A stretch of DNA of 64,000 nucleotides from Candidatus Uhrbacteria bacterium (GCA_037131775.1 JBAXQK010000003.1:12439-76438); one strand, 5' to 3'; shown: positions 26,145 through 30,371, counted from the first letter of the stretch. Notes: generated by a model from the letters alone, not told the origin. Program-made: numbers and translations.

Positions 26145-26819
26145 CTATTCCGGTGTCGTTCTGTCGGCAAAGACCACGAGCCGATCGGGATACTGCCCGG
26201 CCAGCTTGTCCCATTTCCCGCCGCAGGTAATCAGGTTCAGATGGGCGTTTCCGTCGTCCGAGACGAAGACGGCCGTCGCGTCCGCGGCGGCATCGTACGT
26301 TCGAATTTCACGAACGACGAACGTGACGACAGCCCCCGCGTCGTCCTCGATCACGATCTCATCCCCTGGCCGCGCGTCCTTCAGATTCTTGAACGCGCCG
26401 GTCTGCCCGGCGTACCAGTCCACGTGCCCGTCGATGACCGCGCTCCCGGTTTCTCCAGGACGCTGGCCGTAAGAATACCAACCCGCGTCAAGCGGAAGCG
26501 CGGGAACGTCCATGGCCCCGTCCTTCGTGAGACCGACGGACTCGACGACCGCGTCAATGCCGATCCTCTGGATCCGAATGCGCGCCGGAATTCCAACCCC
26601 TATCACCGCGTCGATCGGCGGGACGATCGCCGCGCGTGCGATTTCTAAGGGACCCGTCCCGACCGTCGCGACGGTCGCGGACGTCGGGAACGCAAACGCG
26701 ACGACGCCTCCCCAAAGCAGAACGTCCGTGATCGCAAAGAGTGCGATCACGGACGTCTCCAGGATGAATCCGTCACGGAGCTGTTTCATAACGGTTCGCA
26801 TCGCATTTCTATTTTTCAT
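26145..26819 (-). CDS. Sortase (class E/F-like transpeptidase)
   Basis: N-terminal TM; catalytic His (IDGHVDW), TLxTC (LNLITCGG), Arg (RLVVFADR). Confidence 0.85.
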   Translation of the reverse strand: MKNRNAMRTVMKQLRDGFILETSVIALFAITDVLLWGGVVAFAFPTSATVATVGTGPLEIARAAIVPPIDAVIGVGIPARIRIQRIGIDAVVESVGLTKDGAMDVPALPLDAGWYSYGQRPGETGSAVIDGHVDWYAGQTGAFKNLKDARPGDEIVIEDDAGAVVTFVVREIRTYDAAADATAVFVSDDGNAHLNLITCGGKWDKLAGQYPDRLVVFADRTTPE

Positions 26820-28588
26820 TTCGCACCTTTCTCACGACGGAGAGCAGGCTCGACAGGGCAACGAATCCGGCCGCGAGAAGAACCCACGTCGGAACCGCCC
26901 GCGTCGACTCAATCCCCGTGTTTGGAAGCGACGGAACAATGCGGGCGGCCACGACGACGGTCGCGATCGCGAAGTCCCTCACGGTGAATCCGTTCGCCAA
27001 CCCGCTCGCGACGGCGGTATTCGTCGTGGTCGCGGTGAGATTCGAGCTGCAGGTGTATTTCCAGGATTCCGTCACGTCGAGGAGCGAATTGCCGTTCGTA
27101 TCGCCGGACACGATAGTTCACCGGGCTGCACTTGTCATCCGAGAGTACAACGGCACCAAGCGGGACCGTTCCCGGGTTCGTGATCGTTTCGGTATAGGTC
27201 ACCGTTCCGCCGCCGGCAGAAAGAGTCAGTGGGTTCGGAACCTTCGTGACGTGGATCAACGGCGGGACAAGCGGGACGCCGACCACGACGGTGGCGCTCG
27301 CGACGTCCACCGCGCTCAAGCCGTTGGCCCATCCGGTGGCCACGACCGTGTTCGTGTGCGTCTTCAACAGCGTCGTGGAACAGGCGTACTTCCAGGTCTC
27401 CGTGACGTCCAGCTTTGAGTCGCCGTTGGTATCGCCCGAGACGAGCACGACGGGAGAGCAGCTGTCGTCGACCATCGTCACGTTCGTCATCGGAACCGTA
27501 CCGATATTTCGGGCCGTGTACGTGTACTGGACCAGTCCGGGACCGTCCGGCAACGCCAGCGGACTCGGCACCTTTACGACATCGATAAGCGGCGGCACGG
27601 GCGGCACGGGCACGGGAGCGCCGATGTCATTGTTCGTAATGATGCAGATGGCGTTTTGTGCCGGGTTCAGGTAAACGAGGCCGTTCGCATCGCAGTCGCC
27701 GGAAAACGACGCGGCATACTTCTCGTTCGAAGTCTCGGATACCGTGTATGGGACGGCATTGTTGCTGAAGGAAAAATTGGTCGTCGATCCAGACGTGACC
27801 GCCACTCCGTTGATGAACAGCGGAAAACTGGAGACGATCGCGGTTCCGCCGTTGTCGTTGACGACGGTCTTCACGACGGTGATCGTTCCCGTGTATCCGC
27901 TTGCGCTGCTGGACGACGGAACCGAGCAAGTCGGCCCGGAAACGGCGTTGCCGGACATCGTCACCTCGGCCGTCCGCGCGAAAGCCCTTCTATCCAGGCT
28001 GGCTCCCGCCGCCATGGTGATGCTGGTATCCGCGAGGATATTTCCAACGAACGCGCTGCCCGCGCCGAACGTGGCGGTACTCACGACTCCCCACCACGCG
28101 TTGCACGCAAGCCCTCCTCCCGCGAACACCACTTGCGAGGCGGCGCCCGTGACGATCAGGTCGCTGGCCGACCTGAGGATCCAGACGTCGGCTGAATTTC
28201 CGGAAAGGGTGAGCGTTCCGTTCGTCAGGTGAAAGGAATCCGCACAGTAGACGCCGGGAGGAAGGACCTCTCCGGCCAGCTCGTGGATGCCCAATCCCGT
28301 ATAGTCCGTGCCGCCGTCGGATCCGCATCCCGGGACCGCGAGGTCCGCGTACGCGTCATTCCGATCCGCCATGGCCCCCGCCGCGATTCCGCCGCCGTCC
28401 GCGTCATACAGGATGCCCCCCATCGACGTCGACCCGGATTCGACGTAATGAGGTCCCGGGCCGATGCCCGGGCTGATGCCGATGTCGCCGCTCACCGTTG
28501 ACGCTCCGGTGTTCGTCACTTCGGATCCGGCCAGTATCGAGAACGTGGATGCCGTGCCAAGGTGTGAAATTATAACGACTTCTGCCAC
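26809..28588 (-). pseudogene. LPNTG-anchored surface protein with three DUF11-like repeats; reading frame broken by an apparent single-nt indel near 27108-27115
   Basis: Repeat 3 (…LSDDKCSPV) continues in another frame as SGDTNGNSLLDVTESWKYTCSS…IVPSLPNTG + hydrophobic stretch + RKVRNEK; the 559-aa frame ends in Arg-rich nonsense. Confidence 0.65.
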
Positions 28589-28594
28589 GCAGGA

Positions 28595-28640
28595 ATCATA
28601 TCATGTTTTTTCAAATTTTGATATTTTTTTCAAATTTCAC
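28595..28640 (-). promoter_or_regulatory. AT-rich upstream region with direct repeat TTTTTTCAAATTT x2; likely promoter/UP element of the surface-protein/sortase operon
   Basis: Only strongly AT-rich stretch in the neighbourhood; directly upstream of the 28588 start. Confidence 0.3.
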
Positions 28641-29590: not shown

Positions 29591-29618
29591 AAAAAACCAC
29601 AGGCCTTGCGGCTGTGAT
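29591..29618 (-). terminator. Rho-independent terminator (cacagccgcaaggcctgtg + T6 on the minus strand)
   Basis: Downstream of the lipoprotein gene stop. Confidence 0.5.
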
Positions 29619-29722
29619 TTTCTCGTGGCAGAGCACACCGCTACTGAATTCAATTTCACAAGGCTTTCGAAGGGTTTCGTGAATGTAGTGCTGGCACGCA
29701 GGTACGATGATTTTAAGGGGCT

Positions 29723-30241
29723 TTAGAGATTGACGGTTTTAAATGATTTCAAGAAAGTTACAGCTTCGGCCATGTGTTCTGGAGTATCAAAGCCATAGTC
29801 GTAGCGAGGCGGTAGAGCAAAAACATAGGCAGTGTTCCGTCCGAGTTCGTTTGGTGAAAATGGTGCAGCACTCGTGCTAACGATACCGGTGTCAATATCA
29901 GCCCATTGATTAAGGGGGATGACCATAACCGGAATTCGTTGGCCGGTCGTGTCGGCCTTGGGGTTGTTGATGGTTATTGTAGTGCCTGTTTCGACGGTGG
30001 ATTCACTAGCTGCTGACCCAGGAGGATTCGCTTTATTGCCTTGCCAAATATCAGTCGTGATGGTGTAGCCTTGCCAGCTCTCCGGTAGTGTCAAACTAAA
30101 ACCGTATTGTGCGTTGACGTAGTTCAAACTGTCAGTGACCGCGGCCTTGTCTTGATTGGTTTGCGTGGTGGTCGTGACCGTCGAGCTGCAGCCAGCGCCG
30201 AGCAGGGCTAGGGTTGCAACAAGAACAAATAATGATTTCAT
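29723..30241 (-). CDS. Lipoprotein (lipobox LLGAGC), hypothetical; compositionally AT-shifted gene
   Basis: MKSLFVLVATLALLGAGCSS...; GC visibly about 48% against about 63% in its flanks. Confidence 0.75.
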   Translation of the reverse strand: MKSLFVLVATLALLGAGCSSTVTTTTQTNQDKAAVTDSLNYVNAQYGFSLTLPESWQGYTITTDIWQGNKANPPGSAASESTVETGTTITINNPKADTTGQRIPVMVIPLNQWADIDTGIVSTSAAPFSPNELGRNTAYVFALPPRYDYGFDTPEHMAEAVTFLKSFKTVNL

Positions 30242-30266
30242 ATAACGAAATCATAACGCTAAACAA

Positions 30267-30293
30267 AAAATCCTGCAAAATTGCAGGATTTTT
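30267..30293. terminator. Bidirectional terminator hairpin (aatcctgcaa-aa-ttgcaggatt) with A/T tracts
   Basis: Between the tRNA-Trp 3' end and the lipoprotein gene start. Confidence 0.55.
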
Positions 30294-30295
30294 CG

Positions 30296-30371
30296 TGGCA
30301 GGGGCGCAGGGATTCGAACCCTGAATGAGAGTTTTGGAGACTCTAGTGATAGCCATTTCACTACGCCCCTG
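30296..30371 (-). tRNA. tRNA-Trp (anticodon CCA), CCA encoded
   Basis: Acceptor AGGGGCG/CGCCCCU, D-arm GUGA...UCAC, anticodon loop CUCCAAA, T-arm CAGGG-UUCGAAU-CCCUG. Confidence 0.88.

Follow-up and report, generated by a model that had tools for sequence, protein, structure and literature searches.

The window analysed here, a 64-kb stretch of DNA from an uncultured Candidatus Uhrbacteria bacterium (Patescibacteria), most probably contains a recently inactivated copy (pseudogene; probability about 0.8) of a two-gene cassette common in Patescibacteria, in which a surface-protein gene is followed by a sortase gene. In comparison with its close intact orthologues P0122 (on locus L002) and P0001 (on locus L001), the surface-protein gene has a broken reading frame and lacks its 5′ part. 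The initial annotation had offered recent pseudogenisation as one of its readings; a 1-nt insertion relative to the orthologues and an independent loss of the signal peptide both support it. From the sequence we infer a loss of function of the surface-protein gene, as either lesion alone should stop surface display. All features of the cassette lie on the minus strand and are listed below in window coordinates.

26145-26789, minus: sortase gene, 214 aa when started at the conserved ATG; extends to 26819 as the longest ORF
26809-27111, minus: 100-aa ORF in the other frame, putative pseudogene segment B; rest of repeat 2 plus the sorting signal, in the correct frame
26812-26928, minus: cell-wall sorting signal; LPNTG at 26914-26928, hydrophobic segment at 26833-26895, RKVRNEK tail at 26812-26832
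26909-27111, minus: out-of-frame Arg-rich tail of 67 codons (RVRRYERQFAPRRD...) closing the 559-aa ORF; no homology within the family
26909-28588, minus: 559-aa ORF, longest-ORF translation, ending in the out-of-frame tail
26944-27280, minus: DUF7507 repeat 2 (repaired-protein residues 437-548); split by the frameshift at 27112
27112, minus: extra nucleotide, read as C on this strand, inside TAT-C-GTG; CGTG of the window corresponds to ATT or AGT in orthologues
27113-28588, minus: putative pseudogene segment A, in-frame codons 1-492 with a GTG start; first 9 codons without homology to any orthologue
27281-27613, minus: DUF7507 repeat 1, residues 326-436; from Pfam and self-comparison
27614-27916, minus: middle beta-sandwich, residues 225-325; without a Pfam match and not a repeat copy
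27941-28537, minus: ice-binding-like (DUF3494) beta-helix domain, residues 18-216; Pfam PF11999
28564-28683, minus: 120-nt spacer from the rsgA stop codon to the first homologous codon, standing in place of the relatives' cupin gene, start codon and signal-peptide codons

Both ORFs of the initial annotation were recovered, the 559-aa ORF and, in a second frame, the 100-aa ORF with LPNTG, a hydrophobic stretch and RKVRNEK, and the 1-nt indel that it had placed at their junction was borne out. The junction reads CCG GTG AAC TAT C GTG TCC GGC GAT on the minus strand, and removal of the single C at 27112 joined both frames into a 592-aa protein. This repaired protein aligned end to end with the 626-aa P0122 and P0001, and besides the missing N-terminus the sole indel was a gap of 4-6 aa within the linker that leads to LPNTG. 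At the junction itself, L001 has TAT ATT TCC and L002 has TAT AGT TCC, whereas the window has TAT CGTG TCC (3 nt versus 4 nt); by this alignment, the window carries a real 1-nt insertion relative to the intact, single-frame orthologues. The insertion falls in the middle of repeat 2 and cuts off the final three beta-strands together with the LPNTG anchor, at a position between strands of the last Ig-like domain (AlphaFold model of P0001, pLDDT 88). The passenger domains and the sorting signal are parted by it into different reading frames: LPNTG followed by hydrophobic VPTWVLLAAGFVALSSLLSVV and RKVRNEK, an LPXTG-type C-terminus, occurs only in the shifted frame at 26809-27111. Scanning of the 64-kb window revealed an LPXTG-type C-terminus once, at 26812-26928.

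Two promoter-like matches were returned by a consensus scan, at 28560-28533 and 27138-27110, and both were set aside as evidence, each agreeing at only 9/12 positions. The latter is a sigma-70-like site (ATGACA-17 nt-TATCGT, 27110-27138, minus) with the inserted base in its second hexamer; without base 27112 this hexamer becomes TATGTG and fails the scan's rule. With only 9/12 positions, the match is probably due to chance.

A second lesion, overlooked by the initial annotation, has deprived the gene of its start codon and of about 37 codons for the signal peptide. Homologous DNA in L001 and L002 started only at 28562, at the LGTA codons, and these are preceded in the window ORF by nine unrelated, non-hydrophobic codons (VAEVVIISH). 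In orthologues, the LGTA equivalent follows about 35-37 residues that include a hydrophobic core and an AxA site. Of the 67 homologues with a locatable LGxA motif, 59 have a hydrophobic run in the N-terminal extension (median 35 aa), and no signal peptide or hydrophobic peptide was found in any frame upstream of 28562. The orthologues thus carry an N-terminal Sec signal peptide that the window gene lacks. Gene order also differed: L002 has rsgA-cupin-IBP-sortase and L001 has cupin-IBP-sortase, whereas in the window rsgA is followed by the 120-nt spacer and the shortened gene, with no cupin homologue anywhere in the 64 kb. Within the spacer lies a 27-nt AT-rich motif, TGAAATTTGAAAAAAATATCAAAATTT (28613-28639, minus), which matched at 23/27 bases a site 24 nt upstream of the start codon of the intact L002 gene (0/300 shuffles equalled the score). 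This motif may have been retained as a leader, promoter or operator for the cassette, and its persistence in the spacer hints that the cupin gene and the signal peptide were lost in separate events.

We then assigned domains to the surface protein. The N-terminal third is a DUF3494 domain, absent from the earlier description (PF11999, E=1.4e-37, 129.9 bits versus a cut-off of 28.7); the IBP_CFB equivalog NF045625 was not reached (82.6 bits versus a cut-off of 400). The three repeats of about 110 aa reported in the initial annotation proved to be two, its third being the second half of repeat 2, according to self-comparison and two DUF7507 stretches in Pfam (PF24346, 35.7 bits versus a gathering cut-off of 27). 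Residues 326-436 and 437-548 were 62% identical over 109 aa without gaps, a match obtained only once base 27112 is removed. Residues 225-325 form an unrelated beta-sandwich, and the three-repeat description was rejected. A search for DUF11 (PF01345) in the substrate protein gave 15.7 bits, under the cut-off of 24.6. The AlphaFold model of P0001, an orthologue with 82% identity (mean pLDDT 88.3), revealed in order a signal-peptide helix, a beta-helix and three Ig-like sandwiches, followed by the LPNTG segment, which is disordered, and by a membrane helix at the C-terminus, spanning 601-625. The head of this orthologue model, used for fold comparison in place of the window protein, matched PDB 6EIO (Foldseek E=3.3e-14, TM 0.86, 34% identity). 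Two residues of the window protein depart from the family: Arg replaces a Gly invariant in 102/102 homologues (G200R), and Leu replaces a Phe conserved in 101/102 (F138L).

The surface-protein gene is also a mosaic relative to L002. The segment 27281-27916, covering the middle domain and repeat 1, showed a dS of about 0.14 (dN about 0.01-0.02), versus a dS of 0.56 for the ice-binding-like domain (27941-28537), which suggests between-strain recombination within the gene.

The sortase ORF at 26145-26819 (minus) adjoins the LPNTG substrate, and the label "sortase operon" was correct. The protein matched Pfam PF04203 over profile positions 1-124 of 125 (E=3.7e-22, 78.8 bits versus a cut-off of 26.6) and has one N-terminal membrane helix. 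Its best NCBIfam class was class F (NF033748, E=5.4e-37, 126.8 bits, with class E at 26.5 bits), at a score below the curated cut-off of 166, so that class F membership is not established. The His/Cys/Arg triad described in the initial annotation is intact (codons 26424-26426, 26223-26225 and 26181-26183), within the motifs IDGHVD, LITCGG and DRLVVFAD; the GH, TC.G and RL..F.D motifs were invariant in nine cassette sortases, the window's included. His and Cys aligned to those of PDB 4TQX, the one match, and a weak one, of a phmmer search against PDB sequences (E=0.009), and the assignment of the catalytic residues relied mainly on conservation within the family. The 11-nt overlap reported between substrate and sortase did not hold, being a product of the longest-ORF call: L001 and L002 conserve a start that corresponds to the ATG at 26789 (MKQLRDGF...), 19 nt past the substrate stop codon, and the upstream ATG at 26819 arises from window-specific substitutions. 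Neither the 224-aa sortase ORF nor P0002 was found by exact look-up in the contig index.

By analogy with established sortase biology and the fibrillar-adhesin literature, the product of the first gene in an intact cassette would be exported through Sec by means of its signal peptide and held by its C-terminal membrane segment. The membrane-anchored sortase would then cleave LPNT|G between T and G and link the protein to the cell wall, displaying the DUF3494 head on a short stalk of three Ig-like domains (one beta-sandwich and two DUF7507). In the window, a rearrangement has taken away the cupin gene upstream together with the start codon and about 37 codons of the signal peptide, and the 1-nt insertion, midway through DUF7507 repeat 2, parts the last three beta-strands and LPNTG from the remainder. 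Lacking a signal peptide and having its anchor in the wrong frame, the protein is not expected to be displayed on the surface here. The retained sortase may serve substrates encoded elsewhere in the genome, or may have had too little time to decay.

Apart from both lesions the gene contains no stops or frameshifts, and dN/dS was 0.20 versus L002 and 0.19 versus L001. Values of about 0.2 in an otherwise open frame indicate that the decay is recent. Branch-specific changes, with L001 as outgroup, comprised 22 nonsynonymous and 35 synonymous changes for the window and 14 and 30 for L002; this is no significant nonsynonymous excess on the window branch (Fisher p=0.53). As no relaxation of selection was detected, the case for decay consists solely of the two lesions and one G-to-R change. 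Counting against a pseudogene are the sortase, which is still intact, and the NCBI annotation of the 559-aa ORF as an ordinary protein.

We considered whether the true genome holds one continuous gene of about 590 aa, the extra base being an assembly or sequencing error. The lesion is a single base within a gene that holds two 62%-identical internal repeats and, apart from its 5′ end, is free of further stops or frameshifts, as such an error would leave it. The same base was nevertheless obtained from different pipelines. An ENA contig (L003, ERZ27300037, MEGAHIT k141, 77.8 kb) was 100% identical to the window in DNA over 21,680 nt and a Logan contig (L004, SRR7053541) over 5,399 nt, both spanning both lesions; the identical 559-aa product, out-of-frame tail included, is present in JGI (27-kb contig) and NCBI (142.6-kb contig, MEI6510795.1) records, an agreement at contig and protein level among four assemblies that may stem from overlapping read sets. 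This agreement makes a one-off assembly error unlikely. In addition, the context of base 27112 is not homopolymeric, and a 1-bp error cannot account for the absence of the cupin gene and the signal peptide, which L003 and L004 show in identical form. Repeats 1 and 2 shared no blastn match in DNA at E<=1e-3, which makes repeat collapse unlikely; with the matching L003 and L004 contigs, this led us to reject a repeat-collapse misassembly. The assembly error in a repeat that the initial annotation had raised is, overall, an improbable source of the frameshift.

Surface adhesins are typical phase-variable genes, and the off and on states of this one would be a single base apart, so that slipped-strand mispairing at the junction might switch it reversibly. 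We observed no homopolymer or short tandem repeat at or near 27112, where the sequence is GTGAACTATCGTGTCC; Tandem Repeats Finder reported no repeat between 26687 and 27528, 27100-27120 included. All recovered copies were the off form, and the on form would still be without a signal peptide. A scan of JGI metagenome contigs and GTDB genome contigs for the exact junction pattern, with or without the extra base, matched neither allele, and by itself neither shows nor excludes an intact allele in the same strain. The phase-variable slip proposed in the initial annotation is thus unsupported and very unlikely. Programmed +1 ribosomal frameshifting or transcriptional slippage could restore a full-length protein in principle, the needed shift being +1 and the upstream frame having no stop codon before the junction. 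We consider it barely credible here: the orthologues are single-frame, so the shift is not conserved; UAU-CGU is neither slippery nor hungry (CGT at 12.1 per 1000 codons versus AGA at 1.6); and the product would again have no signal peptide. By codon-anticodon rules tRNA-Tyr cannot re-pair on AUC.

The 559-aa protein might instead have a new cytoplasmic role without its signal peptide, or arrive at the surface unanchored by another export route. The long, open ORF, the dN/dS of about 0.2 and the complete ice-binding-like domain are in favour of such a role; yet the low dN/dS mostly reflects the history before the lesions, and an invariant glycine has been replaced (G200R). The 67 out-of-frame Arg-rich residues and the half Ig-like domain would be expected to misfold, and none of the top 120 homologues shares this architecture except copies of the same sequence. 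We regard a new role as improbable, to about the same degree as an assembly error. Less probable still is that the split gene remains expressed, with low-level +1 recoding or an unrecognised switch restoring the anchor and an alternative route serving export, or that its fixed loss marks a change in attachment. If the former were true, the locus would encode a surface adhesin that an episymbiotic CPR bacterium regulates; in the more modest version, fixed loss of a head-stalk-anchor adhesin with the sortase kept would mark a recent change of host or surface attachment in an Uhrbacteria population.

The preferred reading, a recent pseudogene, bears mainly on public annotation. NCBI lists the 559-aa ORF (MEI6510795.1, Candidatus Uhrbacteria MAG) as a normal "ice-binding family protein" without a pseudogene flag, and the entry is probably a pseudogene product. 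Correction of this annotation is the main consequence; significance is otherwise little, and the frameshift raises no new question. Patescibacteria presumably live attached to other cells, and strain-level loss of an adhesin could on that account inform studies of host attachment.

Beyond the cassette, the window carries an extra segment of about 655 bp relative to L002 at 29616-30302 (minus), directly after tRNA-Trp (30296-30370). It encodes a 172-aa putative lipoprotein (ORF 29723-30241, MKSLFVLVATLALLGAGCSS...) and is flanked by a direct repeat of about 15 nt, CTGCCACGA[A/G]AAAAT, that includes the tRNA 3′ end. From its sequence, the segment resembles a small indel at tRNA-Trp.

The family to which the surface protein belongs is large, with 1,342 matches at E<=0.001 among 8,000 candidates scored, and the named matches are mostly from Patescibacteria or called "ice-binding family protein". 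Intact relatives have 590-626 aa in a single frame. The intact 626-aa P0122 shares a 90% cluster with the 559-aa ORF of the window; P0121 and P0122 were found by cluster look-up, which gave their loci. The sortase gene directly follows the substrate gene in 7/7 patescibacterial genome loci retrieved. This cassette of substrate and sortase is widespread in Patescibacteria, yet uncharacterised; literature searches on DUF3494 together with LPXTG, and on the run and assembly accessions, found no papers. Outside the window, the 835-aa P0107 (JGI contig) has Ice_binding, DUF7507 and Sortase Pfam matches in a single product; in that other metagenome the substrate and sortase genes have apparently been fused or are read through as one.

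One of the closest known systems is the cassette itself, represented by P0001 on L001 and P0122 on L002 with the same domain order (DUF3494, beta-sandwich, two DUF7507, LPxTG), and by NCBI "MAG: ice-binding family protein" entries from Falkowbacteria, Magasanikbacteria, Uhrbacteria and Saccharimonadales. These relatives show 50-90% identity to the window protein, with the sortase immediately downstream; they are intact and in one frame, whereas the window copy has no signal peptide and its anchor is detached by the 1-nt insertion. The head shares the right-handed beta-helix with flanking helix of DUF3494 type 1 ice-binding proteins (6EIO, FfIBP 4NU2, Colwellia 3WP9, Shewanella 6BG8). Those solved proteins are secreted or free antifreeze proteins of cold-adapted organisms, whereas here the domain heads a sortase-anchored stalk. 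Many DUF3494 proteins are said, in the 2019 account of Vance et al. as cited in PMC9210967, to come from non-cold habitats, and the DUF3494 head need not imply ice binding here. The class F sortases (NF033748) have in common with the window sortase a single N-terminal membrane helix, the His/Cys/Arg motifs and an adjacent LPXTG-type substrate, whereas the window sortase scores under the family cut-off. PMC8286594 and PMC9210967 assign Ice_binding (PF11999) to the adhesive domains of fibrillar adhesins and DUF11 to their stalk domains. The window family shares the head-stalk-anchor layout (adhesive head, Ig-like stalk, LPXTG) of fibrillar-adhesin-like proteins from Gram-positive bacteria, and differs from them in its short stalk of three domains and in its host, a CPR bacterium.
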